From assembly GCA_021789435.1 (NCBI GenBank), contig JAJYJO010000002.1:3713-67712 (forward strand): a DNA stretch of 64,000 bases, in the 5' to 3' direction. Below, one piece after another: positions 8,775 to 22,824 of the stretch. This DNA comes from Chloroflexota bacterium. GTDB taxonomy: Bacteria; Chloroflexota; Limnocylindria; Limnocylindrales; CSP1-4. The notes beneath the pieces were generated by a model. That model was not told the origin of the DNA, did not search any database, and worked only from the letters and a program-made list of their open reading frames with translations. Numbering within the stretch: the first letter of the stretch is position 1; each line of letters starts with the position of its first letter. A program made the position numbers and the translations under genes.

Positions 8775-10433
8775 GTGCGGAGACCCATCGCCCTCTATGC
8801 GTTCGCCCTGCTCGTCCGGCTGGGGTTGATTGCGGCCTTCCCTCATCCGGCCTATGTCGATTCCTACTACTACGTCAACGTGGCGCAGGCGCTCCAGGCC
8901 GGCCACGGCCTCAACATCGACTTCATCTGGGCCTTCGTGGATGTGGGCGGCCGGCTGCCGGCGAACCCCCACCTCCCGATCCCGAGCAACGCCCACTGGA
9001 TGCCGCTGGCGTCCCTGGTCCAGGTCCCCTTCCTGGCCCTCTTCGGCTCGGCCTCCTGGGCTCCCCAGGTCCCCTTCGCCCTCTTCGGGGCGCTCGCCGC
9101 GCCGCTCACCTGGGCGATCGCGCGCGAGGCCGGGGCGAGCCGGTCGGTCCAGCTCGGCGCCGGCCTGCTGGGCGCGGTTCCGGCCGGGGCCACCATCTTC
9201 ATGAGCCAGCCCGACAACTTCGGGCTGTACGAGGTGCTGGGCGCGGCGGCCCTCTGGCTGACGGCGCGCGGGCTCCGGGGGGACAGCCGCGGCTTCGCCC
9301 TGGCGGGCCTGCTGGTGGGGTTCGCCACGCTGGCCCGCAACGATGGCGTGCTGATCGGGCTGGTGGTGGCCCTTGCCTTCTTCTGGGACCGCTGGCGGGC
9401 CTGGCGTTCCGGCGGCGGCCGGCGACCGGCCATCCCGTTCTGGTCCGCGGTCGCCTGCGCGGCGCTCTTCGCCGTGGTGATGGTCCCCTGGTATGCGCGC
9501 GAGCTGGCCGTCTTCGGCAGCATCTCGCCCTCGTCCTCGTCCGGCCGGATCCTCTTCATCCGGGATTTCGCCGAGATGAACAGCATCACCACGCCCACCA
9601 CCCTGGCCTACTTCCTGGGCCAGGGGATCGGGCCACTGGTCACGAGCCGCGTCCTGGGCCTGGTGGCGGCGGCCGCCAACTTCGCCGTCATCATCTGCTC
9701 GCTGGTGCTGGCCCCGTTCCTGGTGGTGGGGGCCTGGCGAAGGCGCCGATCCGGTGATTTCGGGCCGTTCCTGGTCTACTTCGCCGTCCTCTTCGCCTTC
9801 TCCGCCCTGGTCTCCGCGGTCCACGTACCGTACGGGACCTTCCTCCACTCTGCGGTGGCGCTCGCTCCGCACACCTACGTCCTGGCGCTTGAGGGCGTGG
9901 TCGCCGCCGTCGGCTGGGTGGCCCGTCGCCGTCGGTCCTGGCACGAGGAGCAGGCGGTGCCGGTCTTCCTGTGGGGCACGGTGGGCCTGACGATGCTGAC
10001 CGCGGCGGCCTTCACCGTGAGCGTGGTCAACGGCTGGACGGTGGAGCGGAACTACCAGCTGGCGGTCGCCGCGAAACTGGACCGCCTGGGGGTGCCGGCT
10101 TCCGACCGGCTGATGACGATCGACGCGGGCGGCTACCGCTACACGACCGGGCACGGCGGGGTGGTGACGGTCAACGACCCACTGCCGACGATCGAGCAGG
10201 TGGCGAAGGCCTACGACATCCGCTGGCTGGTCCTGGAGCGGGGCCACATCGTCCCGCCGCTGGTCCCGGTCCTGGGCGGCCAGGTCCACCAGTCCTGGAT
10301 CGGGCCGCCGGTGCTGACGATCCCCTCCTCCGTGGCGGCCGGCACGTATCCGGAGCTGGCGCTGTACCCGGTCTGCGTGGCGCCGGGCGACGCGCGCTGT
10401 GCCGCGTCGACAGCGGCCGGGGCCACGCCATGA
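8775..10433 (+). CDS. GT-C membrane glycosyltransferase, PMT_2/ArnT-like (GT39/GT83-like)
   Basis: 552 aa; N-terminal TM then loop 'HPAYVDSYYYVNVAQAL' (acidic/aromatic loop-1 motif), ~11 TM helices and a C-terminal periplasmic domain. It is a paralog of the next gene. Confidence 0.65.
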   Translation: MRRPIALYAFALLVRLGLIAAFPHPAYVDSYYYVNVAQALQAGHGLNIDFIWAFVDVGGRLPANPHLPIPSNAHWMPLASLVQVPFLALFGSASWAPQVPFALFGALAAPLTWAIAREAGASRSVQLGAGLLGAVPAGATIFMSQPDNFGLYEVLGAAALWLTARGLRGDSRGFALAGLLVGFATLARNDGVLIGLVVALAFFWDRWRAWRSGGGRRPAIPFWSAVACAALFAVVMVPWYARELAVFGSISPSSSSGRILFIRDFAEMNSITTPTTLAYFLGQGIGPLVTSRVLGLVAAAANFAVIICSLVLAPFLVVGAWRRRRSGDFGPFLVYFAVLFAFSALVSAVHVPYGTFLHSAVALAPHTYVLALEGVVAAVGWVARRRRSWHEEQAVPVFLWGTVGLTMLTAAAFTVSVVNGWTVERNYQLAVAAKLDRLGVPASDRLMTIDAGGYRYTTGHGGVVTVNDPLPTIEQVAKAYDIRWLVLERGHIVPPLVPVLGGQVHQSWIGPPVLTIPSSVAAGTYPELALYPVCVAPGDARCAASTAAGATP

Positions 10434-12121
10434 GCGCCCCGCGCACGCCCGCGCCGGACGCCTTCGTCCTGTCGCCCCGCGAGGCCTGGCTGAGTGCCGG
10501 CCTCGTCTTCCTGGTGGCGCTGGCCGTCCGGGCCGTCTCCGCGGCCGGGGTGCCGTTCCCGGTCCCGGAGGACACCGCCTACTACGTGGAGGTGGCCCGC
10601 AACCTGGTCCAGGGCCGCGGCCTGGTGAGCGACGCGCTCTGGAGCTACCAGACACCGGCCCTGGACCCGGCGACGGGGACCTTCGGGCTCTTCTTCCCGC
10701 GGCCGGCCTTCGAGGTCTGGCTGCCGCTGCCGAGCCTGCTGATGGCCGTCCCGATGCTGCTCTTCGGGCCGACCTTCCACGCCGCACAGGTCATGTCGGT
10801 CCCGGTCGGGGCGCTCGTGCCCGTGCTGGCCTGGCGCCTGGGCGCCGACGTGGCGGCGGAGCTGGGCCTGCCGGCGGGGCGGGCGCGGACGATGGCCCTG
10901 GGCGCCGGCCTCTGCGCCGCGGTGTTCGGGCCGCTCGTCCTGCACAACCTGCTGCCGGACTCCACGATGGTCTTCGCGGTCCTCGCTCTCTGGGCCTGCC
11001 TGCTGATGGAGCGGCTTGTCCGGGACGCAAGCGGGGGACGGCGGATCGCGTCGCTGGACCGCCGGCTGCTGGGACTGGGCGTCCTGCTGGGGCTGGCCGC
11101 CGTGACCCGCAGCGAGGCGGCCTGGGTCGCCCTGACCTGGGCGCTGCTGGCCTGGCTGGCCGTACCGGGAGCGCGCCGGGAGCGGCTCCGCCTGGTCGCG
11201 GTCCCGGCGGTCGTGGCGCTGGCGGTCTTCGCTCCCTGGGGGATCCGCGACTGGCGGATCTTCGGCTCGCCGCTGCCCGGTCAGACCGCGGCCAATGCCT
11301 TCTCCGTGACCGGCTTCGACATCTTCGCCTACCAGGTCCTGCCCACCCTCCAGCGCTACCTGGCGCAGGGTCCGGCGGCGCTGCTCCGGATGCGCGTGGA
11401 GGGCTTCGACCACAACCTCTTCTCCGTCCTCCTGATCCCCGCCGTGCCGGTCGGGCCGCTCGGCCTGCTGGCCCTGCCCTGGACCGGCCGGCTGCGGTCG
11501 CTCCGGCCACTGCTGATCGTGAGCCTCCTCACCTTCACCATCACGACCCTGGTCTTCCCGGTCGCCACGACCTGGGGCACCTTCCTCCACGCGGCCGGGC
11601 CGGTGCACGTCCTTCTGCTGGTCAGCTGCCTGGTGGCGCTCGACGCGGTGATCGCCCGGGTCGGGCGCTGGCGCGGCTGGACGCGGCCGGTCGCCTGGCT
11701 GGGCCCGGCCCTGGTGGCAGGGGTCGCCGCGCCCTTCCTGCTTCTGACGGTGACCGGGATCGGCAGCCTGGCAGCGGACACGCAGGCTCGCTACGCGGCC
11801 CTGCCGGGCCGCCTGGCGGCCGCCGGCATCCCGCTCTCGGCCGACGCGCCGGTCGTGACGGACTTCCCGATCTGGCTCTCCTACGCGGACGGCGTCCCGA
11901 CCCTGGCCCTGCCCGACGAGTCGCCGGCCAGCGTGCTGTCGCTCGCCCAGCGGTTCGGGGCCCGGCTGCTCGTGGTGCAGAGCAGCGGCCACGGCGCGTG
12001 GCCCCAGGTCATCGAAGGCCCGAACGCCCCGCCCGGGGCGGCCTGCTTCCAGGCGGTCCCGCTGCCGCCGGCCGGGGCCGCCCTGGCCGAGACGCGTGCG
12101 TACCTCATCGTCTGCCGCTGA
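10430..12121 (+). CDS. GT-C membrane glycosyltransferase, PMT_2/ArnT-like, tandem paralog of 8775..10433
   Basis: ATG 10430 overlaps the upstream stop (ATGA). Loop-1 motif 'PVPEDTAYYVEVARNL', many TM helices. It is in frame with the tail of the listed ORF 9971..12121. Confidence 0.6.
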   Translation: MSAPRTPAPDAFVLSPREAWLSAGLVFLVALAVRAVSAAGVPFPVPEDTAYYVEVARNLVQGRGLVSDALWSYQTPALDPATGTFGLFFPRPAFEVWLPLPSLLMAVPMLLFGPTFHAAQVMSVPVGALVPVLAWRLGADVAAELGLPAGRARTMALGAGLCAAVFGPLVLHNLLPDSTMVFAVLALWACLLMERLVRDASGGRRIASLDRRLLGLGVLLGLAAVTRSEAAWVALTWALLAWLAVPGARRERLRLVAVPAVVALAVFAPWGIRDWRIFGSPLPGQTAANAFSVTGFDIFAYQVLPTLQRYLAQGPAALLRMRVEGFDHNLFSVLLIPAVPVGPLGLLALPWTGRLRSLRPLLIVSLLTFTITTLVFPVATTWGTFLHAAGPVHVLLLVSCLVALDAVIARVGRWRGWTRPVAWLGPALVAGVAAPFLLLTVTGIGSLAADTQARYAALPGRLAAAGIPLSADAPVVTDFPIWLSYADGVPTLALPDESPASVLSLAQRFGARLLVVQSSGHGAWPQVIEGPNAPPGAACFQAVPLPPAGAALAETRAYLIVCR

Positions 12122-12146
12122 TAGCCGCCCGTATACTCGATCGACG

Positions 12147-13271
12147 ATGGACGCCGGACGGACGGGGACGGACGCGCGCGAGGGCCGCTTCGACGAGCTC
12201 TATGCCGAGGCGAAGGCGACCCTGGGCTATGGCGCCAACACGCTCCGCTCGATCAGCGAGCGCTACCGCGAGGTTTACCGCGACGCGCTCGCCCGCTGGC
12301 ACGCCCTGCGCGACGAGCTGGAGGCGGTGGATCGCGCGACGCCCGGCGCCGCCCCTCCGACAGACGCGGGTGACGCGGCCGCTGTGGACGGCCTGCCCGG
12401 ACCTGCCGGGGCGCTGGCGGCCGAGGCCGGCGCCGAGGATGCCCGCCGGCGGGCGCTGCGGTCGGACGTGGAGCGGATGACCGGCGACCTGGGCCGCCAC
12501 CAGGGCGAGCTCTCCAAGCTGGAGCTGACCGTCCGGAGCATGGAGAGCGGCTGGCTCTTCCTGGAGCGCGGCGACGTCAGCCTGCTCACCGAGCGCGACG
12601 TGCCCTGGTTGCCGACGGACATCCAGATGCGGATCGTGGAGGCCCAGGAGGCCGAGCGGTCGCGCCTGGCCCAGGAGGTCCACGACGGGCCCGCCCAGGC
12701 GCTCTCCAACGCGATCTTCCAGGTGGAATACATCGAGCGGGTGCTGGACCAGAACACCCGGCTGGCGCGGACCGAGCTGCGCTTCCTCCGGGAGCTGCTG
12801 CGCCGCGAGCTGGGCGACGTCCGGACCTTCATCAGCCAGCTCCGGCCCCCGCTCCTCGACGAGCTGGGCCTGGACGGGACGATCCTGGACGCCGTGGAGA
12901 ACATGGCCGCCCTCGCCGGCATCACCATCGAGACGGAGCTGGCCGCGCCGGGCGACCGGCTCTCCGACGTGGAGCAGGCGGGCGTTCTCCGGATCGCCCA
13001 GGAAGCGCTCCAGAATGTGCGCAAGCACGCCGGGGCCCGGCGGGCCGTGGTGGCCACCCGCCTCGAGGGGACCGACTGGGTCCTGGAGGTGCGGGACGAC
13101 GGCCGGGGCTTCGACATCGGCCAGGTGGCCACCCGCGGCCGCCGCAACTTCGGCCTCCAGTTCATGCGGGAGCGGGCCGACCTGATCGGCGCCCGCTTCG
13201 AGGTTCGTTCTCGCCCCGCCGGGGGCGCCATCGTCTGGCTCGCCATCCCGATCGGAGAGGAGGGTTCATGA
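12147..13271 (+). CDS. Cytoplasmic sensor histidine kinase, HisKA_3/DegS-like
   Basis: No TM; coiled-coil N-terminus. H-box 'LAQEVHDGPAQALSNAIFQVEYI', N-box 'QEALQNVRKHA', G1 'VRDDGRGFD', G2 'GLQFMRERA'. TATACT -10-like hexamer at 12132-12137 lies 9 nt before the ATG (leaderless). Confidence 0.75.
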   Translation: MDAGRTGTDAREGRFDELYAEAKATLGYGANTLRSISERYREVYRDALARWHALRDELEAVDRATPGAAPPTDAGDAAAVDGLPGPAGALAAEAGAEDARRRALRSDVERMTGDLGRHQGELSKLELTVRSMESGWLFLERGDVSLLTERDVPWLPTDIQMRIVEAQEAERSRLAQEVHDGPAQALSNAIFQVEYIERVLDQNTRLARTELRFLRELLRRELGDVRTFISQLRPPLLDELGLDGTILDAVENMAALAGITIETELAAPGDRLSDVEQAGVLRIAQEALQNVRKHAGARRAVVATRLEGTDWVLEVRDDGRGFDIGQVATRGRRNFGLQFMRERADLIGARFEVRSRPAGGAIVWLAIPIGEEGS

Positions 13272-14011
13272 GCGCAATGGAGTACCAGGGCCCGGAGCGG
13301 CGGCGCGGCGGCCCGGACCGTCGCGGCGGGGAGAAGACCCGCATCCTGCTGGTGGACGACCACGCCCTCTTCCGGGTGGGCATGCGCAACATCCTCGAGC
13401 GCGAGCCCGACTTCGTGATCGTGGGCGAGGCGGACGACACCCGCAGCGCCTTCGACGGTGCCGTGGAGAACGCCCCGGACATCATCCTGATGGACCTCTC
13501 GCTCCCGCCTCCCGGCGGCATCGAGACGACCCAGCGCATCAAGCGCGAGCTGCCCGCGGCGGGGATCATCGTCCTGGCCGTCAGCGAGGACGAGGACCTG
13601 CTCTTCGACGCGATCAAGGCCGGCGCGGCCGCCTTCATCCTCAAGGACATCGGCCCCGACGACCTGGTGACGATCATCCGCCGGGTCGCGACCGGCGAGT
13701 TCCTGATCAACGACAAGGTTTTCTCGCGGCCGGCCGTCGCCAGCCGGGTCCTCAAGGAGTTCCGCGAGCTGGCCATCTACGGCCAGGAGGCCGCCCCGAT
13801 CTTCGCCCCTCTCTCGCCGCGGGAGGTCGAGATCCTGGACAACATCGCCCAGGGGATGACCAACAAGCAGGTTGCCTATGCCCTCTCGATCAGCGAGCAG
13901 ACGGTCAAGAACCACATGAGCTCGATCCTCCGCAAGCTGAGCGTCAACGACCGGACCCAGGCGGTCGTCTACGCCATGCGCCAGGGCTGGATCCGGATGC
14001 CCGAGGACTGA
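13268..14011 (+). CDS. Response regulator, NarL/LuxR family (DegU-like)
   Basis: ATGA overlap with the kinase. Receiver 'RILLVDDHALFRVGMR ... IILMDLSLP' plus C-terminal LuxR HTH 'LSPREVEILDNIAQGMTNKQVAYALSISEQTVKNHMSSILRKL'. Confidence 0.8.
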   Translation: MSAMEYQGPERRRGGPDRRGGEKTRILLVDDHALFRVGMRNILEREPDFVIVGEADDTRSAFDGAVENAPDIILMDLSLPPPGGIETTQRIKRELPAAGIIVLAVSEDEDLLFDAIKAGAAAFILKDIGPDDLVTIIRRVATGEFLINDKVFSRPAVASRVLKEFRELAIYGQEAAPIFAPLSPREVEILDNIAQGMTNKQVAYALSISEQTVKNHMSSILRKLSVNDRTQAVVYAMRQGWIRMPED

Positions 14012-14017
14012 GGCAGG

Positions 14018-15244
14018 GTGAGCGACCCGCAGCCGGCCTCCCCGGCCTCCCCGGCCGGCCTGGCCGACCTGGCAGCCGGCACGCGCCGGCAGGTCGACCT
14101 GCTCGGGGTGGAGCTGGCGGAGATCGACCTGCTGGTCGCCCAGGCCAGGTCCGAGGCCGGCCGGCACGAGCAGAGGCGCGTCCAGGCGGCCGAGAAGAGC
14201 AAGGCGGCGACCGACCGCGGCGCCGACGCGGCCGAGCTCGCGGAGCTGGGCCGCCAGCTCGTGGCCGCCACCCGGCGGGCGGCCGTCATGGAAGCCCAGG
14301 TGGACGTGCTGGAGGGCAAGCAGAAGGTCCTGGGACGCTTCCGCGACAGCCTGGCCGGCGAGGCGGTGGTGCTGGAGCGGCTGGCCGGCGGTGGCGGGGC
14401 ATCCGGCGGCGCCGCGGCGGGCGCGCTCGGGCCGGCTTCGGCCACGGAGGGCGAGCCGGGCGTGCTGCCGGCCGGGGTCTCCCGGCTGCTGCTGAGCGCC
14501 CAGGAGGACCTCCGCCGGGACATCGCCCGGGCGATGCACGACGGCCCGGCCCAGAGCCTGACCAACATCGTCCTCCAGGCCCAGATCGTGGATCGCCTCC
14601 TGGGCCGCGACGCGGCCGCGGCGGCGGCCGAGCTGCGCCAGCTGGTGGCGATGGTCCAGGCGACGCTGGAGGCCACAAAGTCCTTCATCTTCGACGTCCG
14701 GCCGATGGTCCTCGACGACCTGGGGCTGGTGCCGACGATCCGGCGGGCGGCCCTGGAGCGATCCCGCCGCGCCCGCATCCCGGTCGCGTTCGAGTCGGTG
14801 GGACTGGACCGCCGCCTGCCGATGGACGTGGAATCGGGCCTCTTCCGGATCCTGGACGAGGCGACCGAGGCCTATCTCGGCCTCGAGCCGGACCGGGTGC
14901 TGATCGACCTCGACTGGTCGGAGCGGCTGGCCGCCCGGGTCCGCGCGGTGCGCGACGCGGCGCCACAGGCGGAGGAACCGGCCGCGGCCGGCGGGGCGTC
15001 GGGCCGGCGCCGCCTGCGCTGGGGACGCGGCCGCGACAAGGAGCCGGAGGTGCCGGCTGCTCTCGCCGCCATGATCGAGGAGCGCCGGAGCGCGGAGGAG
15101 GCCGCCCGGACACCGGCCCCGATCGGCCTGCCCGCGCCCGCCTGGCGAGCCATCCAGCAGCGGGCCGCGGTGATCTCGGTGAGCGTGGAGCTCGCCGATG
15201 AGGGGCGCGACCTGCGCGTCGGCTTCGAGCCCGGCCGGGCCTGA
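14018..15244 (+). CDS. DegS-like histidine-kinase paralog with degenerate catalytic (CA) domain, a putative pseudokinase or phosphatase
   Basis: Coiled-coil N-terminus and intact DHp H-box 'IARAMHDGPAQSLTNIVLQAQIV'. The N-box is replaced by 'LDEATEAYLGL' (no Asn/Lys/His), there is no DxGxG, and there is an Ala-rich insert. Confidence 0.55.
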   Translation: MSDPQPASPASPAGLADLAAGTRRQVDLLGVELAEIDLLVAQARSEAGRHEQRRVQAAEKSKAATDRGADAAELAELGRQLVAATRRAAVMEAQVDVLEGKQKVLGRFRDSLAGEAVVLERLAGGGGASGGAAAGALGPASATEGEPGVLPAGVSRLLLSAQEDLRRDIARAMHDGPAQSLTNIVLQAQIVDRLLGRDAAAAAAELRQLVAMVQATLEATKSFIFDVRPMVLDDLGLVPTIRRAALERSRRARIPVAFESVGLDRRLPMDVESGLFRILDEATEAYLGLEPDRVLIDLDWSERLAARVRAVRDAAPQAEEPAAAGGASGRRRLRWGRGRDKEPEVPAALAAMIEERRSAEEAARTPAPIGLPAPAWRAIQQRAAVISVSVELADEGRDLRVGFEPGRA

Positions 15245-15246
15245 CC

Positions 15247-15459
15247 GTGGGGACGGCGCTCCTTCGCGACGGCCGGGAGGCCCCGGCCCGCCTGCTGGCG
15301 GCCGCGCGCCGGCTCTCCCGGGAAGAGGCCCAGGGCCTGGTGGAGTACGGCCTGATCCTGGCCCTGATGGCCCTGGTGGCGGTCGTGGCCCTCACCTTCT
15401 TCGGCGGCGAGCTCTCGACCCTGCTCAGCGTGGTCGGCGGAGCGGCCAGCGCCGGTTGA
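15247..15459 (+). CDS. flp: Flp/Fap family type IVb prepilin (flp1); start uncertain
   Basis: C-terminal '...EEAQG|LVEYGLILALMALVAVVALTFFGG' matches the Flp processing and hydrophobic-core motif. GTG start immediately after the upstream stop. Confidence 0.6.
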   Translation: MGTALLRDGREAPARLLAAARRLSREEAQGLVEYGLILALMALVAVVALTFFGGELSTLLSVVGGAASAG

Positions 15460-15566
15460 GGGTGGTGCGTCCGCTCCTAGGACGAATTGCCTAATGGATT
15501 CTGCGGTCCGTGCCGCCTACAGTCCTGATGCCCCGCTCTGGGGTCCGCTCTCATCGGGAGGCTTGT

Positions 15567-15746
15567 ATGGCGCTCGTCAATCGGCTCTACGCGTTCCTCG
15601 CCACCTTCGGTCACGACGAGGAAGGCCAGGGTCTCGCCGAGTACGCGCTGATCCTCGCCCTCATCGCGATCCTGGCGATCATCGCCCTGCTCTTCCTGGG
15701 CGGCCAGGTCAAGACGATCCTGAGCAACGTCGGCAACTCGATCTAG
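15567..15746 (+). CDS. flp: Flp family prepilin (flp2)
   Basis: ATG 15567 with GGGAGG RBS. 'MALVNRLYAFLATFGHDEEGQG|LAEYALILALIAILAIIALLFLGGQVKTILSNVGNSI'. The last 132 nt (15615..15746) are 131/132 identical to flp4. Confidence 0.75.
   Translation: MALVNRLYAFLATFGHDEEGQGLAEYALILALIAILAIIALLFLGGQVKTILSNVGNSI
15615..15746 (+). repeat. 132-bp direct repeat (copy 1; copy 2 at 16372..16503), 131/132 identical, covering the mature-pilin-coding part of flp2 and flp4
   Basis: Direct sequence comparison; single C/T synonymous difference. Confidence 0.8.
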
Positions 15747-15768
15747 CTCGCCGTCTGCGACCGACAAC

Positions 15769-15801
15769 GTGAAGGCCGCGCCCGGTGGGCGCGGCCTTCA
15801 C
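15769..15801 (+). terminator. Perfect 15-bp stem / 3-nt loop GC-rich hairpin after flp2 (intrinsic-terminator-like, no U-tract)
   Basis: gtgaaggccgcgccc-ggt-gggcgcggccttcac, 23 nt after the flp2 stop. Confidence 0.5.
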
Positions 15802-15966
15802 GCGTCGGGACGCCGTTGACGGCGCCTCGCCGTCGCCACGAGCGTTCCCAACTGCCCGGCTGCGGGAGGGCCGCCACCGGTTCATCGCCGTCATCCCGGG
15901 TGCCGCGCACCACTGCCCTCGCCGGGGGAGAGGCGGGGAGCCTCGAAGGAAAGGAGGTGGTGGAGC

Positions 15967-16140
15967 GTGTCCAGCGCAGTCGCACTCATCTCATCCATCA
16001 TCCGGCGCGACGACCGCGGCCAGGGCCTGGCCGAGTACGCACTCATCCTCGCCTTGATCGCGGTCGTGGCGATCGTCTCGCTCATGTTCCTGGGGCAGAA
16101 CGTCCAGACGCTGATCAGCACCGTGGGAAGCTCGGTCTGA
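15967..16140 (+). CDS. flp: Flp family prepilin (flp3), 57 aa, below the ORF-track length cut-off
   Basis: GTG start preceded by AAGGAGGTG SD (15951-15959). 'MSSAVALISSIIRRDDRGQG|LAEYALILALIAVVAIVSLMFLGQNVQTLISTVGSSV'; stop TGA 16138-16140. Its 5' leader is homologous to that of flp4. Confidence 0.7.
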   Translation: MSSAVALISSIIRRDDRGQGLAEYALILALIAVVAIVSLMFLGQNVQTLISTVGSSV

Positions 16141-16180
16141 GCGGGCGGAGCAGGAAAGCACCGATACCGGCCCTGACCCC

Positions 16181-16209
16181 TTGACAGCCCGCGGACACGC
16201 GCATAGGGT
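16181..16209 (+). promoter_or_regulatory. Sigma-70-like promoter TTGACA-N17-TAGGGT upstream of flp4
   Basis: TTGACA at 16181-16186, 17-nt spacer, TAGGGT at 16204-16209. Confidence 0.4.
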
Positions 16210-16329
16210 GGCGCGGCCAGTCGACCAGGGAGGCGGTGGGAGCCAGCATCGGGCTCGGAAGCCTGCCCGGCCGTGACGGCAACCCCCGCCCGGGGGCGGG
16301 GAGTCTCGAGGAAAGGAGGTGCCCACCCC

Positions 16330-16503
16330 ATGACCTATCTCATGGCTCTCATCTCGTCCTATCTTCATCGTGACGAGGAAGGCCAGGGTCTCGCCGAGTA
16401 CGCGCTGATCCTCGCCCTCATCGCGATTCTGGCGATCATCGCCCTGCTCTTCCTGGGCGGCCAGGTCAAGACGATCCTGAGCAACGTCGGCAACTCGATC
16501 TAG
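16330..16503 (+). CDS. flp: Flp family prepilin (flp4), near-identical duplicate of flp2
   Basis: ATG 16330 with GAAAGGAGGTG SD. Sequence from the DEEGQG|LAEYAL processing motif to the C-terminus is identical to flp2; the DNA differs at one synonymous site (ATC/ATT). Confidence 0.75.
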   Translation: MTYLMALISSYLHRDEEGQGLAEYALILALIAILAIIALLFLGGQVKTILSNVGNSI

Positions 16504-16526
16504 CGAGCGCCGTCGTTCTCGATCCA

Positions 16527-16552
16527 AGGGGCCGCGCCTTCGGCGCGGCCCC
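16527..16552 (+). terminator. GC-rich hairpin (11-bp stem, ttc loop) after flp4
   Basis: ggggccgcgcc-ttc-ggcgcggcccc, 24 nt after the flp4 stop; it separates the pilin array from cpaB. Confidence 0.5.
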
Positions 16553-16603
16553 TCCGTGTCCCGGGGGATCCCTCCTGTCAGCCGGGCGATTCGTCCCGCG
16601 CGT

Positions 16604-16649
16604 CCTAGGCCATTCGTATAGTCGCGGGCCCCGGGACCGGTGCTACAGT
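16604..16649 (+). promoter_or_regulatory. cpaB promoter-like element: CCTAGG-CCATTCGTA-N..-CCGGGACCGGTGCTACAGT (extended -10 TGcTACAGT at 16641-16649)
   Basis: Shares CCATTCGTA and CCGGGACC(C)GGTGCTAnAnT with the 8724-8765 element. A related CCTAGG-N36-TACAGT architecture sits upstream of flp2 (15476-15531). Confidence 0.45.
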
Positions 16650-16683
16650 GGTGCCACCTGTCACAAGGCTGGGGAGAGGGTGT

Positions 16684-17571
16684 GTGAAGCGATCTAACCG
16701 TCTGATCCTGCTCATCGGGGTCTTTCTGGCCGTCGTCGCCTTCGTCGGTATCGTCTTCATCATCGGTTCGGGGACCGGCGGCGGCGGTGGAGGCACACCG
16801 ACGCCTCCCACCACGGTCTCGGTTGTCACCGCGGCGCGCGACATCCCGCTGGGGAACCAGATCGTCAGCGCGGACCTGGCGACCACCACGATCAAGACCA
16901 CCGACGAACCGGCCGATGCCTTCACCGACAAGGCCCTGGTCCTGGGCCAGATCGTCCGGACCACCGTCACCCAGGGCCAGATCCTGACCCGAAGCCAGTT
17001 CCTGACGACCACCAACGCGAACAGCATCGTGCCGAGCCTCCAGAAGGGCTTCCGGGCGATCGCCGTCCAGGTGGACCAGGTGACCGGCGTGGGAACGGTG
17101 ATCCAGACCGGCGACCGGGTGGACGTGGTCCTGGGCATCCGCATCCAGACGCTGGTACCGGCACCCGGCCCGAGCGCGCTCCCGCAGCCCTACCCGGGCG
17201 GCCCCCAGCTCTCGGTAAAGACCGTCCTCCAGAACCTCCAGGTGGTGGGAACCCTCCTGCCGCCGGCCACGCAGAGCCAGCAGCAACAGCAGGCCCAGCC
17301 GTCGCCGAGTCCGAGCGGCGGGAACGCCACCACGGGGCCGACCGTGACCCTGAACGGCCAGCAGGAGATCGTGATCCTGGCGGTCACGCCCCAGCAGGCC
17401 GAGGTGATCCGCTACGCCCAGCTGGGCGCCGAGCCGATCACCCTGACCCTCCGCTCCACGGCGGACAAGGACAGCCCGCCTGACGCCACGACCGGCATCG
17501 TCCTCAAGACCCTCATCGACCAGTACGGCGTCATCCCGCCCTTCCCGATCATCTCCAGCGTCCCGAAGTGA
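16684..17571 (+). CDS. cpaB: Flp pilus assembly protein CpaB/RcpC (SAF domain)
   Basis: GTG 16684 with GGGGAGAGGG RBS. 'MKRSNRLILLIGVFLAVVAFVG' TM anchor, Gly/Thr/Pro linker, SAF-like 'VVTAARDIPLGNQIVSADL'. The upstream in-frame GTG at 16648 overlaps the -10-like hexamer. Confidence 0.75.
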   Translation: MKRSNRLILLIGVFLAVVAFVGIVFIIGSGTGGGGGGTPTPPTTVSVVTAARDIPLGNQIVSADLATTTIKTTDEPADAFTDKALVLGQIVRTTVTQGQILTRSQFLTTTNANSIVPSLQKGFRAIAVQVDQVTGVGTVIQTGDRVDVVLGIRIQTLVPAPGPSALPQPYPGGPQLSVKTVLQNLQVVGTLLPPATQSQQQQQAQPSPSPSGGNATTGPTVTLNGQQEIVILAVTPQQAEVIRYAQLGAEPITLTLRSTADKDSPPDATTGIVLKTLIDQYGVIPPFPIISSVPK

Positions 17572-17671: not shown

Positions 17672-18910
17672 ATGGCCGACCAGATCCGCGTCCTGATCGT
17701 CGACGACATCCCGGAGACCCGGGACCACCTCGCCAAGCTGCTCGGCTTCGAGAGCGACATCGAGGTGGCGGGTTCGGCTGCGTCCGGCGCGGAGGCCCTG
17801 GAGATGGCCGCGCGCCTGCTGCCCGACGTGGTGCTGATGGACATCAACATGCCGGACATGGACGGCATCGCGGCCACGGAGCTGCTGTCGGCCCAGGTGC
17901 CGACGGCAGCGATCGTGATGATGTCGGTCCAGGGCGAGGCGGACTACCTGCGGCGTTCCATGCTGGCCGGGGCGCGCGAATTCCTGGTCAAGCCCTTCAG
18001 CTCCGACGAGCTGACGGCCGCGATCCGCCAGGTCCACTCCCGCGAGCGGCAGAAGCTGGACCGCCTGGTGCCGGTCGCCCCGACGCCGGGGAACGGGACG
18101 CCGGCCGGCGAGCGCGGGCCCGGCGAGATCCTGGCGATCTTCAGCCCCAAGGGCGGCGTGGGCCGGACGACGATCGCGGCCAACCTGGCCATCGCCGTCG
18201 CCGAACGCGGCAAGCGGGTGGTGGTGGTGGACGCGTCCTTCCAGTTCGGCGACATCGGCGTCCTCTTCAACCTCAACCCGCGCAACAAGTCGATCGCGGA
18301 CCTGGTCCCGGAGCTCGAGGCCGGCGAGCCCGAGTCGCTGGACACCTTCGTCATCACCCACTCCTCCGGGGTCCGGGTGCTGCTTGCCCCGCCCTCGCCG
18401 GAGATGGCGGAGCTGATCACGACCACCGCTGTCAAGCGCGTCCTGGAGGCCCTCCGGGCCAGCCACGACCTGGTGGTCGTCGACTGCGCCGCCTCCTTCA
18501 ACGACACGACGCTGGCGATCCTGGACCTGGCAGACGTCATCCTTTCCGTGCTGACCCTGGAGATCACCTGCATCAAGAACACCCGCCTCTTCCTGGAGGT
18601 GGCGGACCAGCTCGGCTACGAGCCGTCCAAGGTCCGGCTGGTGCTCAACCGCGCCGACACCACGCTCGGCATCCGGGTCGCCGACGTGGAGCACTCGATC
18701 GGCCGGAAGGTCGACTACACGGTGGTCAGCGACGGGCGGAGCGTGGTCTACGCATTGAACCGGGGCGTACCCTTCGTCCTGAGCAATCGGGAGAGTCAGG
18801 TCACGCAGGACATCATCCGGCTGGCCACCGGGCTCGCAGGCGAGCGCGCGGCGGCCGGAGGTGCCCGCAAGGCTGTGGCTCCCCGCAAATCACTGTTCGC
18901 ATGGCGATGA
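17672..18910 (+). CDS. cpaE: CpaE/TadZ-like pilus assembly ATPase: N-terminal canonical receiver domain plus ParA/MinD-type P-loop ATPase
   Basis: Receiver 'IRVLIVDDIPETRD ... VVLMDINMPDMDG ... LVKPF' and ATPase 'IFSPKGGVGRTTIAANLAIAV'. Confidence 0.8.
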   Translation: MADQIRVLIVDDIPETRDHLAKLLGFESDIEVAGSAASGAEALEMAARLLPDVVLMDINMPDMDGIAATELLSAQVPTAAIVMMSVQGEADYLRRSMLAGAREFLVKPFSSDELTAAIRQVHSRERQKLDRLVPVAPTPGNGTPAGERGPGEILAIFSPKGGVGRTTIAANLAIAVAERGKRVVVVDASFQFGDIGVLFNLNPRNKSIADLVPELEAGEPESLDTFVITHSSGVRVLLAPPSPEMAELITTTAVKRVLEALRASHDLVVVDCAASFNDTTLAILDLADVILSVLTLEITCIKNTRLFLEVADQLGYEPSKVRLVLNRADTTLGIRVADVEHSIGRKVDYTVVSDGRSVVYALNRGVPFVLSNRESQVTQDIIRLATGLAGERAAAGGARKAVAPRKSLFAWR

Positions 18911-19001: not shown

Positions 19002-20411
19002 ATGTCCCTCCTGAAGCGGATCGAGAGCGCCCGACCGGGCTCCGGGCCGGGCCTGCCCGCACCGGCGCCCGGGGCGCCGGCCCCCGGCGGGCCGGGCGCG
19101 CCCGGCGGACCGGTCAGTCCCTCCCAGCGGCTGCTGACGCAGGCTCCGGTCCGCGAGTCGTTCCGGGACGTCAAGTTCCGGATCCAGAGCCGGGTCATCC
19201 AGGACCTGGATCCCAAGCTGGACCTCTCCAACCAGGTCGAGGTGCGCCGCCAGATCGAGGAGATCTTCGGCAAGGTCATCGACGAGGAGGGCCTGGCCCT
19301 GACGCGCGCCGAGCGGGTCAGGATGCTGGAGCAGATCACCGACGAGATCATCGGCCTTGGCCCGCTGGAGCCGCTGCTCCGCGACGAGAGCATCACCGAG
19401 ATCATGGTCAACGGCCCCCGCCAGGTCTACATCGAGCGCTCGGGCAAGCTGGAGCTGACCAACGTCGTCTTCCAGAACGACGACCACGTCATGCGGATCA
19501 TCGACCGGATCATCGCCCCGATCGGACGCCGCGTGGACGAGTCGTCACCGATGGTGGACGCCCGCCTGACCGACGGCTCCCGCGTCAACGCCATCATCCC
19601 GCCGCTGTCGCTCGTCGGCCCGGTGGTCACCGTCCGGAAGTTCTCCGCCTCGCCGTTCACCGTGGACGACCTGATCCGCTTCGGGACCGCGACGCCGGAG
19701 ATGTTCGACTTCCTGCGGGCCTGCGTGGAGGCGCGGCTCAACATCTTCGTCTCCGGCGGCACCGGCTCGGGCAAGACCACGACCCTCAACGTCCTCTCCT
19801 CGTTCATCCCCAACGACGAGCGGATCATCACGATCGAGGACGCGGCCGAGCTCCAGCTCCGCCAGGAGCACGTGGTGACGCTCGAGTCGCGGCCGCCGAA
19901 CATCGAGGGCCGCGGGGCGATCCCGATCCGGGAGCTCGTGCGCAACGCCCTCCGGATGCGCCCCGACCGGATCATCGTCGGCGAGTGCCGCGGCGGCGAG
20001 GCGCTGGACATGCTCCAGGCGATGAACACCGGCCACGACGGCTCGATGTCCACCGGCCACGCGAACAGTCCCCGCGACATGCTGGCGCGCCTGGAGACGA
20101 TGGTCCTGATGGCCGGCGTGGACCTGCCGCTGCGGGCGATCCGCGAGCAGGTCGCCTCCGCGGTGGACCTGATCGTCCACCAGTCCCGCCTCAAGGACGG
20201 CACCCGCAAGATCGTCAACATCACCGAGGTCCAGGGCATGGAGGGTGATGTGATCGTCATGCAGGACGTCTTCGTCTTCGAGCAGACGGGCATCGTGGAG
20301 GGCAAGATCCAGGGCCGCCTCAAGGCGACCGGGATCCGGCCGAAGTTCGTCGAGAAGTTCGAGGTCATGGGCATCCACCTGCCGCCTGGCCTCTTCGGCT
20401 TCGTCTACTAG
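19002..20411 (+). CDS. cpaF: Tad/Flp pilus secretion ATPase CpaF/TadA (type II/IV secretion NTPase)
   Basis: Walker A 'VSGGTGSGKTTTLNVL', 'ITIEDAAELQL', Asp/His boxes, 'ECRGGEALDMLQAMNTGHDG'. Confidence 0.85.
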   Translation: MSLLKRIESARPGSGPGLPAPAPGAPAPGGPGAPGGPVSPSQRLLTQAPVRESFRDVKFRIQSRVIQDLDPKLDLSNQVEVRRQIEEIFGKVIDEEGLALTRAERVRMLEQITDEIIGLGPLEPLLRDESITEIMVNGPRQVYIERSGKLELTNVVFQNDDHVMRIIDRIIAPIGRRVDESSPMVDARLTDGSRVNAIIPPLSLVGPVVTVRKFSASPFTVDDLIRFGTATPEMFDFLRACVEARLNIFVSGGTGSGKTTTLNVLSSFIPNDERIITIEDAAELQLRQEHVVTLESRPPNIEGRGAIPIRELVRNALRMRPDRIIVGECRGGEALDMLQAMNTGHDGSMSTGHANSPRDMLARLETMVLMAGVDLPLRAIREQVASAVDLIVHQSRLKDGTRKIVNITEVQGMEGDVIVMQDVFVFEQTGIVEGKIQGRLKATGIRPKFVEKFEVMGIHLPPGLFGFVY

Positions 20412-20429: not shown

Positions 20430-21443
20430 ATGAACCCCGTCACCGTCGCCGTCGCGGCCGTCGCGGCCCTGGCGATCGTCCTCATCGCGGCCGGCATCGC
20501 CTTCTCCGGCGGGTCGGGGATCAGCGCCCGCCTGGAGCGGTATGCGGCCGGCAGGCAGGACCAGCCCAAGCCGGCCTCCACGGGCCAGGGCCCCATCTCG
20601 GACCTGCTGGCCCAGAGCCAGGCGCTGGCGCAGCTCAACAAGGCCGTCGAGCAGCGCGACTTCGGGGCCAACCTGGCCCGGGAGCTGGCCCGGGCGGACC
20701 TCAAGCTGAAGGTCAGCGAGTACCTGGCCATCTGGGCCGGCTCCACCGTCGGGCTGCCGATCCTCTTCCTGATCCTGTCGATCGCCCTGCCGACGCTGGG
20801 CAACCCGCTGGTCCTGCTGGTGGGAGCCTTCCTGGGCTTCCTGCTGCCGCGCTTCTGGCTGGGCCGCCGCAAGAGCTCGCGGCTCAACGCCTTCAACAAG
20901 CAGCTCCCGGACACGATCACCCTGATCGCCAACGCCCTGCGAGCCGGCTCGTCGTTCCTCCAGGCGATCGAGCTGGTGGTCCGGGAATCGCGACCGCCGA
21001 TCTCGCTCGAGTTCGGCCGGGTCATCCGGGAGGTCAACCTGGGCCTGCCCTTCGAGCAGGCGCTGGAGAACATGGTCCGCCGGGTCCGCTCGGACGACCT
21101 GGAGTTGATGGCGACGGCCATCTCCATCCAGCACACGGTCGGCGGCAACCTGGCCGAGATCCTCGACTCGATCGCCTACACGATCCGGGAGCGGATCCGG
21201 ATCAAGGGCGAGATCCGGACGCTCACCGCCCAGCAGCGACTCTCCGGCTATGTCGTCGGCTTCCTGCCGATCGGCATCGCACTCTTCCTCTTCATCGCCG
21301 CGCCGACCTTCCTGGAGCCGATGTTCAAGAACCCGCCGGGGATCATCGGCCTGCCGGCCGGGGTCATCATCCTCGCCTTCGGCGGCTTCATGATGTTCAT
21401 CGGCTTCATGGCCATCCGGCGCATCGTCGACATCGAGGTCTAG
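20430..21443 (+). CDS. tadB: Tad pilus inner-membrane platform protein TadB (T2SS-F domain)
   Basis: N-terminal TM, cytoplasmic domain, then GspF-like repeat 'PDTITLIANALRAGSSFLQAIE'; follows cpaF. Confidence 0.75.
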   Translation: MNPVTVAVAAVAALAIVLIAAGIAFSGGSGISARLERYAAGRQDQPKPASTGQGPISDLLAQSQALAQLNKAVEQRDFGANLARELARADLKLKVSEYLAIWAGSTVGLPILFLILSIALPTLGNPLVLLVGAFLGFLLPRFWLGRRKSSRLNAFNKQLPDTITLIANALRAGSSFLQAIELVVRESRPPISLEFGRVIREVNLGLPFEQALENMVRRVRSDDLELMATAISIQHTVGGNLAEILDSIAYTIRERIRIKGEIRTLTAQQRLSGYVVGFLPIGIALFLFIAAPTFLEPMFKNPPGIIGLPAGVIILAFGGFMMFIGFMAIRRIVDIEV

Positions 21444-21445
21444 CC

Positions 21446-22381
21446 ATGCCGACGTTCATGCCCATCGTCATCGCCGCCATCGCGGCGGGCTCGATCCTGC
21501 TGATCTTCCTGGGCCTGGCCGGCAGCCGGCCGGTGGACCCGGTCCAGGCCCGGCTGACCCAGCTCGGCTCGATGCAGGCCAAGAACCTGGAGGAGCTGGA
21601 ACTCCAGCAGCCGTTCGTGGAGCGGACGCTGCGCCCGCTGGCCCTGCGTCTCTCCGGGTCCGTCTCCCGGCTCACGAGCCAGTCCTTCACCGAGACCACC
21701 GAGAAGCGGCTGGCCCTGGCCGGCAACCCCGGCGACCTGCGGGTCGCAGACTGGCTGGGGATCAAGGCCGTGGCGGCCATCGTCTTCGCCATCGTCTTCG
21801 TCGTGCTGGGTGTGCTGCTGCTCGGCTTCCCGCTGATGATCGGCCTGATCATGGGCGTGGTGGGCCTGCTCTTCGGCTACACGATTCCGGAGTTCTGGCT
21901 GGGCCGCCGCGTGCGGGCCCGCCAGAAGGCGATCCTGCTGCAGATCCCGGACGCGCTGGACCTGCTGACGATCTCCGTCCGGGCCGGCCTGGGCTTCGAC
22001 GCGGCGCTGGCCAAGGTCGTGGAGAAGATGAAGGGCCCGCTGGTGGACGAGTTCCGGCGGGCGCTGGCGGAGGTGCGGGTTGGCAAGGCGCGCCGCGACG
22101 CGCTGCGCGACATGATCCCGCGGACCGAGGTACCGGCCCTCACCAACTTCATCGGGGCAATCATCCAGGCCGAGCAGCTGGGCGTCTCGATCTCCAAGGT
22201 GCTGCAGGTCCAGTCGGAACAGCTGCGGATCGAGCGGCGCCAGCGGGCCGAGGAGATGGCGGCCAAGGCGCCGATCAAGATGCTCTTCCCCCTGGTGGGC
22301 TGCATCTTCCCGTCCCTCTTCATCATCATCCTGGGCCCGGCCATGATCCTGCTGGTCCTGAACCTGGGGGCGGCGCACTAG
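21446..22381 (+). CDS. tadC: Tad pilus inner-membrane platform protein TadC (T2SS-F domain)
   Basis: GspF-like 'PDALDLLTISVRAGLGFDAALAKV'; paralog of tadB immediately downstream. Confidence 0.75.
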   Translation: MPTFMPIVIAAIAAGSILLIFLGLAGSRPVDPVQARLTQLGSMQAKNLEELELQQPFVERTLRPLALRLSGSVSRLTSQSFTETTEKRLALAGNPGDLRVADWLGIKAVAAIVFAIVFVVLGVLLLGFPLMIGLIMGVVGLLFGYTIPEFWLGRRVRARQKAILLQIPDALDLLTISVRAGLGFDAALAKVVEKMKGPLVDEFRRALAEVRVGKARRDALRDMIPRTEVPALTNFIGAIIQAEQLGVSISKVLQVQSEQLRIERRQRAEEMAAKAPIKMLFPLVGCIFPSLFIIILGPAMILLVLNLGAAH

Positions 22382-22395
22382 GCCGCGTCCGGAGG

Positions 22396-22824
22396 GTGAT
22401 CGCTCGCAACCTGGAGCGCGGCACGCTCCTCGGCTCGTCGCTGGAGGCGGCCTCATCCTTCGGGGCCCGCTTCCGGGGCCTGATGGGCCGGCCTCCGCTC
22501 CCCGATGATGGCGGCCTGTGGCTGCCCGGGACGAACGGGATCCACATGATGTTCATGCGCTTCGCGCTCGACTGTGTCTTCCTGGACCGGCCGGATGCGG
22601 CGGGCCAGCGGCGGGTGGTGGGGCTGCGACGGGCGCTGCCGCCCTGGCGCGGCGTGGTCTGGTACGTCCGCGGCGCGGACGGCGTCCTGGAGCTGCCCGT
22701 GGGAGCGATCGACCGGTCCGGGACGGTGGTCGGGGACCGGGTCGTCGTGGGTGTCGCGGACCCGATCGTCGCGGACGACGGGGCCGACCGGGCCACCGAC
22801 GAGGCCACCGGCCCGCCGCCGTAG
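22396..22824 (+). CDS. DUF192 domain protein (COG1430), a frequent accessory of Tad loci
   Basis: 'FRGLMGRPPLPDDGGLWL...GIHMMFMRFALDCVFLD' matches the DUF192 R-G-L-M-G-R / M-x-F motifs. The GTG start has poor SD spacing, so the start is uncertain. Confidence 0.55.
   Translation: MIARNLERGTLLGSSLEAASSFGARFRGLMGRPPLPDDGGLWLPGTNGIHMMFMRFALDCVFLDRPDAAGQRRVVGLRRALPPWRGVVWYVRGADGVLELPVGAIDRSGTVVGDRVVVGVADPIVADDGADRATDEATGPPP

Follow-up and report, generated by a model that had tools for sequence, protein, structure and literature searches.

We describe here a group of three adjacent signalling genes in a stretch of 64,000 nucleotides (the window) from a Chloroflexota bacterium of the Limnocylindrales (contig JAJYJO010000002.1, assembly GCA_021789435.1), with a G+C content of ~72%. 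The genes encode a histidine kinase (HK1), a response regulator (RR) and a second kinase-like protein (HK2), and they lie directly 5' of a series of genes for Flp-type pili. HK2 belongs to a conserved family of DegS-derived proteins that keep the phosphotransfer domain of a histidine kinase and have lost all of its ATP-binding motifs. All of the open reading frames (ORFs) named in the original prediction, which was made from this DNA sequence, are present on the + strand. The relatives recovered in this analysis all derive from metagenomes or metagenome-assembled genomes (MAGs), the organisms being uncultured. The three genes are:

12147..13271, + strand: HK1, a cytoplasmic histidine kinase of the HisKA_3 type whose ATP-binding domain is intact (Pfam HisKA_3 E 4e-14, HATPase_c E 6e-11)
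13268..14011, + strand: RR, a NarL/DegU-type response regulator (Pfam REC (Response_reg) E 1e-23, GerE E 1e-22)
14018..15244, + strand: HK2, a DegS-derived pseudokinase (Pfam HisKA_3 (PF07730) E 1.6e-11 only)

HK2 is recognizable as a kinase derivative by its dimerization and histidine phosphotransfer (DHp) domain. A Pfam scan with the threshold relaxed to E≤1 finds no HATPase_c match, the signature of the catalytic and ATP-binding (CA) domain, in HK2, or in any of 27 HK2-family proteins each scanned alone (0/27). Alignment of the family shows the N box, QEALxNxxxHA in true kinases, replaced by DEAxxGYL; the G1 box (DxGxG), DDGxGF in true kinases, by EARVxAxR; and the G2 helix, GLxxMxER in true kinases, by WREIQQRA. 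A profile-profile alignment of HK2 with HK1 (hhalign) ends at the first CA helix, and a sequence profile search of the PDB with HK2 returns a sole match, to the DHp domain of DesK. HK2 almost certainly cannot bind ATP and hence almost certainly cannot autophosphorylate. The original prediction that this protein retains its DHp domain and phospho-acceptor histidine while its N box and G1 box are destroyed is borne out by the HisKA_3 match, by the presence of H174 and by the motif columns, and the pseudokinase assignment stands, as sensitive profiles detect no intact HATPase_c domain in 14018..15244.

The possibility that HK2 is a frameshifted fragment of a normal kinase, or a pseudogene, is refuted by its full-length in-frame conservation and confidently predicted fold. 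A database search returns more than 120 full-length homologues at 52–67% identity and one near-identical copy at 99%, all annotated with PF07730 only, and with the named ones assigned to Candidatus Limnocylindria/Limnocylindrales. In a scan of species-representative genomes, relatives are present in at least 541 of them, the best 80 all being Chloroflexota/Limnocylindria MAGs. We also reject a recent duplication of HK1 as the source of HK2, as the alignment is limited to the DHp domains (33–34% identity), with no sequence relationship between the N-terminal regions.

An AlphaFold2 (AF2) model of HK2, with a mean predicted local distance difference test score (pLDDT) of 78.8, divides the protein as follows:

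aa 15-123: N-terminal helical hairpin, pLDDT ~95
aa 128-150: linker, disordered
aa 152-233: DHp domain, lower confidence, mean pLDDT ~55-78
aa 237-311 and 347-403: C-terminal alpha/beta domain with the CA fold, pLDDT ~95
aa 312-346: insert within the CA-fold domain, disordered, variable and Arg/Gly-rich, in place of the ATP lid

The model thus portrays a protein in which the Bergerat fold is kept and the nucleotide-binding chemistry is gone. An extra conserved helix (aa 347-364) occupies the lid region, where P346, L349 and M352 are invariant, as are W300, R377, R382 and G396 elsewhere in the C-terminal domain. Conservation, expressed as the mean identity of relatives to the window protein, is highest in the DHp domain (80%, and in 70% of its columns the conservation is 90% or more), followed by the pseudo-CA domain (51–60%) and the N-terminal hairpin (52%), and is low in the insert (26%) and the linker (19%). 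Within the DHp domain, H174, D175 and Q179 (in H174-D175-G-P-A-Q179) are invariant in 83/83 orthologues, an H-DxxxQ arrangement that is the same as that of HisKA_3 transmitters. In DesK, Gln193 positions the catalytic water for dephosphorylation, Asp189 contacts the response regulator, and the interface with DesR has at its core S196 and L200 (PMC5231405); the last two align without gaps to T182 and L186 of HK2, both invariant.

HK1 keeps the complete site, in agreement with the original prediction that its N, G1 and G2 boxes are intact. HATPase_c is matched in all 17 HK1 orthologues scanned individually (17/17), and N290 of the N box, D317, G319 and G321 of G1, and G336 of G2 are invariant across 73–74 orthologues. 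We place the start of HK1 at ATG 12147, not at GTG 12096, because its orthologues share an MDAxR start. An AF2 model built with database homologues has a hairpin-DHp-CA architecture, although at lower confidence (pLDDT 62.5), and the N-terminal hairpin has no detectable DegS likeness in sequence. A TATACT hexamer lies 6 nt 5' of the HK1 ATG (in 12130..12146), inside the 25-nt gap after the upstream gene GT_B, and could be a candidate −10 element of a near-leaderless transcript; a consensus scan for promoters and terminators across 11900–16800 gave nothing useful.

The ATG of RR overlaps the TGA of HK1 in ggttcATGAgc, and RR appears to be translationally coupled to HK1 through this ATGA overlap; this junction and the REC and GerE domains match the NarL/DegU-type, ATGA-coupled regulator that had been predicted. 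The top NCBIfam match of RR is to NarL (161 bits, below cut-off). Its residues D30, D76 and K126 are invariant across orthologues, which are 84–92% identical when short end-truncated matches are left out, and RR lies directly 5' of HK2 or of a DegS-like gene in all loci. A 608-aa HK1-RR 'fusion' (P0290) is annotated at another locus (L005:8167-9993), and we considered and rejected it as 'Rosetta-stone' evidence for the pairing of the two proteins; the frame shifts ~15 codons before the HK1 stop, and P0290 is probably an assembly error, not a natural hybrid kinase.

A library-wide profile search returned 360 clusters at E≤1e-30, and the proteins lying just outside the HK2 family carry the Pfam DegS domain (PF05384) together with HisKA_3 and HATPase_c. 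With one such kinase, P0250, the HK2 profile aligned over residues 14-301 (E 4e-40), covering the HK2 N-terminal hairpin, the DHp domain and the first CA elements, whereas the HK1 profile aligned only from the DHp domain onward. Residues 14-150 of the HK2 profile match kinases carrying PF05384, and no such match is seen with HK1. PF05384 itself has no direct match in HK2, in HK2 relatives or in HK1 in Pfam scans. Because the HK2 profile, unlike that of HK1, spans the N-terminal hairpin of P0250, HK2 is best regarded as the DegS descendant and HK1 as an intact kinase whose N-terminal sequence differs. The locus had been predicted to hold a DegS/DegU-like pair plus a degenerate paralogue, with alignment to DegS proposed as a check; in alignment with DegS-domain kinases the N-terminal likeness is detected for the pseudokinase and not for HK1, such that the framing is better inverted, with the dead member as the DegS-like one.

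Gene arrangements outside of the Limnocylindria are instructive in this regard. In one locus (L089) a true DegS-domain kinase sits in a plain RR-DegS pair without HK1. In a more distant Chloroflexota lineage (L087 and L088) glycosyltransferase (GT)-like genes, an HK1-like kinase, RR and a degenerate DegS are present, with no tad genes. In a 6.1-Mb Chloroflexota genome (L086) RR and a degenerate DegS lie beside a PMT_2-like gene, with no adjacent HK1. Because of these arrangements, the RR-DegS pair looks to be the ancestral state, and in two lineages degeneration of the CA domain goes together with an extra kinase gene upstream. In L086 (9366-14825), RR and the degenerate DegS are followed by a 1819-aa TadE-domain protein and then by another large protein exceeding 1000 aa.

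The wider setting of the three genes was examined by tblastn comparison of nine window proteins with 85 fetched loci; for the Limnocylindria, counts of gene order refer to loci with sufficient flanking DNA. The order GT_A-GT_B-HK1-RR-HK2-flp-CpaB-CpaE-CpaF is kept wherever the flanks reach. The neighbouring genes in the window are:

8775..10433, + strand: GT_A, a PMT_2-type membrane glycosyltransferase (Pfam PMT_2 E 1.9e-10)
10430..12121, + strand: GT_B, a membrane protein paralogous to GT_A (start mapped; syntenic)
15247..15459, + strand: flp1, a Flp-type prepilin gene (Pfam Flp_Fap E 1.5e-5, below the gathering score)
15510/15567..15746, + strand: flp2 (Pfam Flp_Fap; flp2 to flp4 E 2e-6 to 6e-5)
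15967..16140, + strand: flp3 (Pfam Flp_Fap)
16273/16330..16503, + strand: flp4 (Pfam Flp_Fap)
16648..17571, + strand: CpaB/RcpC pilus assembly protein (Pfam RcpC E 2e-15, SAF)
17672..18910, + strand: REC-CpaE/TadZ ATPase-family protein (Pfam Response_reg E 1.5e-27, AAA_31/ParA)
19002..20411, + strand: CpaF ATPase (Pfam T2SSE)
20430..21443, + strand: TadB (Pfam T2SSF)
21446..22381, + strand: TadC (Pfam T2SSF)
22396..22824, + strand: DUF192 gene (Pfam DUF192)

With its Flp pilins, CpaB, CpaE/TadZ, CpaF, TadB and TadC, this is a Tad/Flp pilus locus, and CpaF-TadB-TadC-DUF192 are in the same order in relatives. Identity across orthologues is ~90% for most full-length CpaF matches, mostly 55–82% for HK1 and 50–67% for HK2. 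The HK2 stop (TGA, 15242-15244) is separated from the flp1 GTG at 15247 by a 2-nt gap, confirming the predicted spacing and the position of the triad directly 5' of flp1. Among 86 loci examined, 75 have an abutting flp gene at the HK2 stop, within −4 to +15 nt in 63, and the commonest junction is a 4-nt overlap (28 loci). HK2 appears to be translationally coupled to the pilin gene, and the occurrence of the triad with an abutting flp in ~80 independent genomes is far beyond chance. Synteny alone suggests that the triad controls pilin expression. It is not intrinsically a pilus regulator, because the HK-RR-pseudoHK triad of L087 and L088 lacks tad genes, and the link to pili is lineage-specific.

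GT_B overlaps GT_A by ATGA and ends 25 nt before HK1; GT_B has no Pfam match in the window protein, and its L004 orthologue has a weak PMT_2 match. In every Limnocylindria locus whose upstream flank is long enough, GT_A and GT_B precede the triad. In L087, where tad genes are absent, a GT homologue of 29% identity likewise lies ahead of the triad; the triad may therefore be associated no less with GT enzymes, possibly acting in the glycosylation of pilins or of the envelope, than with pili.

The flp1 product has a variable leader and, in its mature part, a conserved GQGLVEYGLIL segment; the G/xxEY motif is likewise conserved in the Flp proteins in spite of their sub-gathering Flp_Fap scores. 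We considered whether the HK2 hairpin senses the long flp1 leader, and reject this idea on the grounds that neither the length nor the sequence of the leader is conserved among 75 orthologues. The genes flp2 and flp4 are duplicates that have hardly diverged (99% identity across 133 nt), and ribosome binding site positions suggest that their true starts are the shorter ones, at 15567 and 16330. Perfect GC-rich hairpins follow flp2 (15768-15802, 16-bp stem) and flp4 (16527-16553, 12-bp stem), and may serve as terminators or attenuators, fixing how much pilin is made relative to the machinery.

The receiver of TadZ has been described as atypical. In the CpaE protein of this locus, 65/65 orthologues share the receiver residues D11, D12, D57, S85 and K107 without variation, and the domain is fully canonical and apparently phosphorylatable, making it a possible second phospho-acceptor of the locus, for which a phosphodonor must exist.

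Between 7455 and 21134 the minus strand has antisense ORFs of great length, reaching 1110 aa, that overlap real genes; these are typical artefacts of 72% G+C DNA and are best discounted as genes. In some long-read MAG assemblies (L001/L002:12925-14300; L090) the CpaE, HK1 and GT genes are broken up, with the pieces recovered by tblastn; these breaks are most likely indel errors, and the gene calls there are misleading. L090 had seemed to hold an RR-pseudoHK-flp arrangement lacking HK1, and we reject it as such, since tblastn finds fragmented GT_A, GT_B and HK1 upstream; L090 is the same locus in a noisy assembly.

From the anatomy, motif loss, fold, conservation, synteny and origin reported above we can propose how the three proteins work, with both the biochemical steps and the regulatory target inferred. 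HK1, having the only working ATP site of the three, would be the sole phosphodonor to RR. HK2 would dimerize through its intact HisKA_3 DHp domain and dock the DegU/NarL-type RR, and its H-D-x3-Q centre would strip phosphate from phosphorylated RR, either as a water-mediated phosphatase or by back-transfer onto its own histidine, or both. The nucleotide-blind CA-fold domain could hold the DHp domain in a phosphatase-competent state, with the DegS-type N-terminal hairpin providing a second, independent input. The kinase and phosphatase roles of an ancestral bifunctional DegS would thus be split over two proteins, and the level of RR phosphorylation would set transcription of the operon, flp1 included, and of the downstream Flp/Tad genes.

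We put the probability that this account – HK2 as an ATP-independent phosphatase or phospho-sink for RR, with HK1 as donor – is correct as a whole at about 45%. The 'phosphatase or modulator' role suggested in the original prediction is consistent with the invariant H-DxxxQ and the kept CA fold. The invariance of H174, D175 and Q179, read together with the roles of the corresponding Gln and Asp in DesK, points to phosphatase action and contact with RR, as does the match of the DesK docking positions to T182 and L186, and the DHp domain is the most constrained part of the protein. Retention of all ATP-binding residues in HK1 supports its role as donor. The descent from a bifunctional kinase is supported by the position of PF05384 true kinases as the next-nearest relatives of HK2, by the plain RR-DegS pair of L089, and by the pairing of a degenerate DegS with an upstream HK1-type kinase both in the Limnocylindria and in a second lineage. 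The tight class-wide linkage of HK1-RR-HK2-flp1 also counts in favour of the account.

Several observations weigh on the other side. The histidine is not needed for phosphatase chemistry in HisKA_3 proteins (PMC5231405), and the conservation of H174 in every orthologue hints at a phospho-acceptor role. PhyP, a kinase with a degenerate CA domain that was first called a phosphatase, has turned out to be a phosphotransferase in which phosphatase activity could not be detected (PMC5898713), and a laboratory-evolved, CA-frameshifted ChrS – a 'pseudokinase' according to its authors – lost phosphatase function (PMC9491836). Finally, L086 has RR and a degenerate DegS without an adjacent HK1.

The main rival casts HK2 as a dimeric histidine phosphotransferase akin to Spo0B, ChpT and PhyT, with H174 passing phosphate between receivers, a role that the original prediction did not weigh and that is equally well precedented. 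A possible route would run from HK1 to the receiver of CpaE, then to HK2 and to the DegU-like RR, or in reverse, coupling the status of pilus assembly to transcription. The overall architecture, a DHp domain with a histidine followed by an ATP-blind Bergerat-like domain, is that of ChpT (PMC3433190), and ChpT (4qpk) is among the Foldseek matches of HK2, at rank 39; precedents for such transfers are available in PhyP to PhyT (PMC5898713) and in RedE, which takes phosphate from a receiver (PMC2755868). The invariant H174 (83/83) suits a relay, and two canonical receivers, those of RR and CpaE, are at hand. Nonetheless, pure phosphotransfer does not need an invariant DxxxQ, and the triad seems to work without REC-CpaE nearby, because in L087 and L088 the 8-kb flanks examined hold neither CpaE nor any other receiver. 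A HisKA_3 DHp domain is expected to pair with NarL-type receivers and not with a CheY-like receiver such as that of CpaE. We regard this reading as unlikely, even if it is the best placed of the alternatives.

Less probable again is that HK2 acts through HK1, either by trans-phosphorylation within a heterodimer or hetero-oligomer (a split kinase), or by allosteric tuning of HK1, as with RetS-GacS, DivL-CckA or ChrS-HrrS. The two proteins have the same hairpin-DHp-CA architecture, their DHp domains are 33–34% identical with a near-identical HDGPAQxLxN segment, and their genes share an operon and are conserved together in every Limnocylindria locus with sufficient flank; there are precedents for kinase heteromers and for pseudokinase modulators (PMC9491836). 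Heterodimerization of histidine kinases is rare, however, the DHp core positions mostly differ outside of the His box, the degenerate DegS of L086 has no neighbouring HK1, and an invariant DxxxQ would be needless in a pure scaffold.

A four-protein phospho-network, with HK1 as the sole ATP-using donor and HK2 as a reversible histidine relay or sink linking RR and the CpaE receiver, is a speculation we rate as doubtful. If it were true, pilin transcription and the activity or localization of the Tad machine would be set by one shared phosphate pool, a wiring that is not known for any Tad system. Mechanisms beyond the phosphatase account and its three rivals have only a slim chance. Scarcely credible is the last of the rivals, that HK2 is a non-canonical nucleotide-binding kinase or a decaying, functionless gene: its CA fold is kept, but all of the Mg/ATP-contacting motifs are gone across the family with the lid replaced by a disordered, variable insert, and decay is excluded by full-length conservation, by relatives in at least 541 species genomes and by the constraint on the DHp columns.

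Kinase derivatives with dead ATP sites, such as ChpT, Spo0B and PhyT, are key nodes of bacterial signalling, of which few families are recognized, and those reviewed are not HisKA_3 proteins. The HK2 family offers a clean natural example of how a bifunctional DegS-type kinase can come apart into a kinase plus a partner that is blind to ATP, with true-kinase, intermediate and fully degenerate forms all available across the Chloroflexota. The triad is a probable regulator of Flp/Tad pili in the Limnocylindria, and perhaps of the adjacent PMT_2-type glycosyltransferases. There are also consequences for annotation, as hundreds of HK2-family proteins are labelled 'sensor histidine kinase DegS' and almost certainly are not kinases. 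A literature search found no paper on the HK2 family, and none on pili in the Limnocylindria.

Among characterized systems, DegS-DegU is the natural point of reference, with its soluble kinase, N-terminal helical hairpin, HisKA_3 DHp domain containing HDGPAQ, and adjacent REC+GerE regulator; the JGI label for HK1 and HK2 orthologues alike is 'DegS'. The triad differs in that HK2 is without any ATP-binding motif, in the order HK1-RR-HK2 in place of degS-degU, and in the presence of a second, intact kinase. ChpT has a phospho-His DHp hairpin and an ATP-blind C-terminal Bergerat-like domain with a remodelled lid and added helical turns that fill the ATP pocket (PMC3433190), and HK2 resembles ChpT and Spo0B in having an extra conserved helix and an insert at the lid position. 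There is no detectable sequence relationship between HK2 and ChpT or Spo0B, however, and ChpT ranks behind true kinases in the Foldseek search; HK2 is moreover of the HisKA_3 class, with an intact DxxxQ and a 120-aa N-terminal sensor-like hairpin.

PhyT (PhyP) of Sphingomonas melonis has a conserved histidine and a degenerate ATPase domain, is encoded beside its response regulator, and both shuttles phosphate and restrains that regulator (PMC5898713). HK2 is similarly kinase-derived, with a conserved histidine, a degenerate ATPase domain and a regulator gene next door, whereas PhyT is a membrane-anchored alphaproteobacterial protein of the HWE/HisKA_2 (HRxxN) class that works on PhyR/NepR partner switching. 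The RedCDEF 'four-component' system of Myxococcus xanthus, in which RedE takes phosphate from a receiver and dephosphorylates phosphorylated RedF (PMC2755868), likewise combines a true kinase, a non-autophosphorylating kinase-like protein and response regulators in a single operon. RedE is the opposite of HK2 in its domains, with a well-scoring HATPase_c (SMART E 5e-18) and a poor HisKA (SMART E 2.7) yet an invariant His-24, and its phosphatase activity is ADP-dependent.

DivL, PsmA and the evolved ChrS_CA-fs are also kinase-fold proteins that signal without autokinase activity. DivL and PsmA differ from HK2 in lacking the histidine and keeping the CA domain. ChrS is itself a HisKA_3 kinase, and loss of its CA domain rewires signalling through a paralogous kinase (PMC9491836), but ChrS_CA-fs is a laboratory frameshift and not a conserved natural family. 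Kinase-derived, ATP-blind DHp proteins are thus an established kind, represented by ChpT, Spo0B and PhyT and with RedE, DivL and PsmA as related cases; the HK2 family is set apart from them by its HisKA_3/DegS origin, the intact DxxxQ, the sensor-like hairpin, the operon shared with an intact paralogous kinase and a common response regulator, and the apparent translational coupling to a pilin gene.

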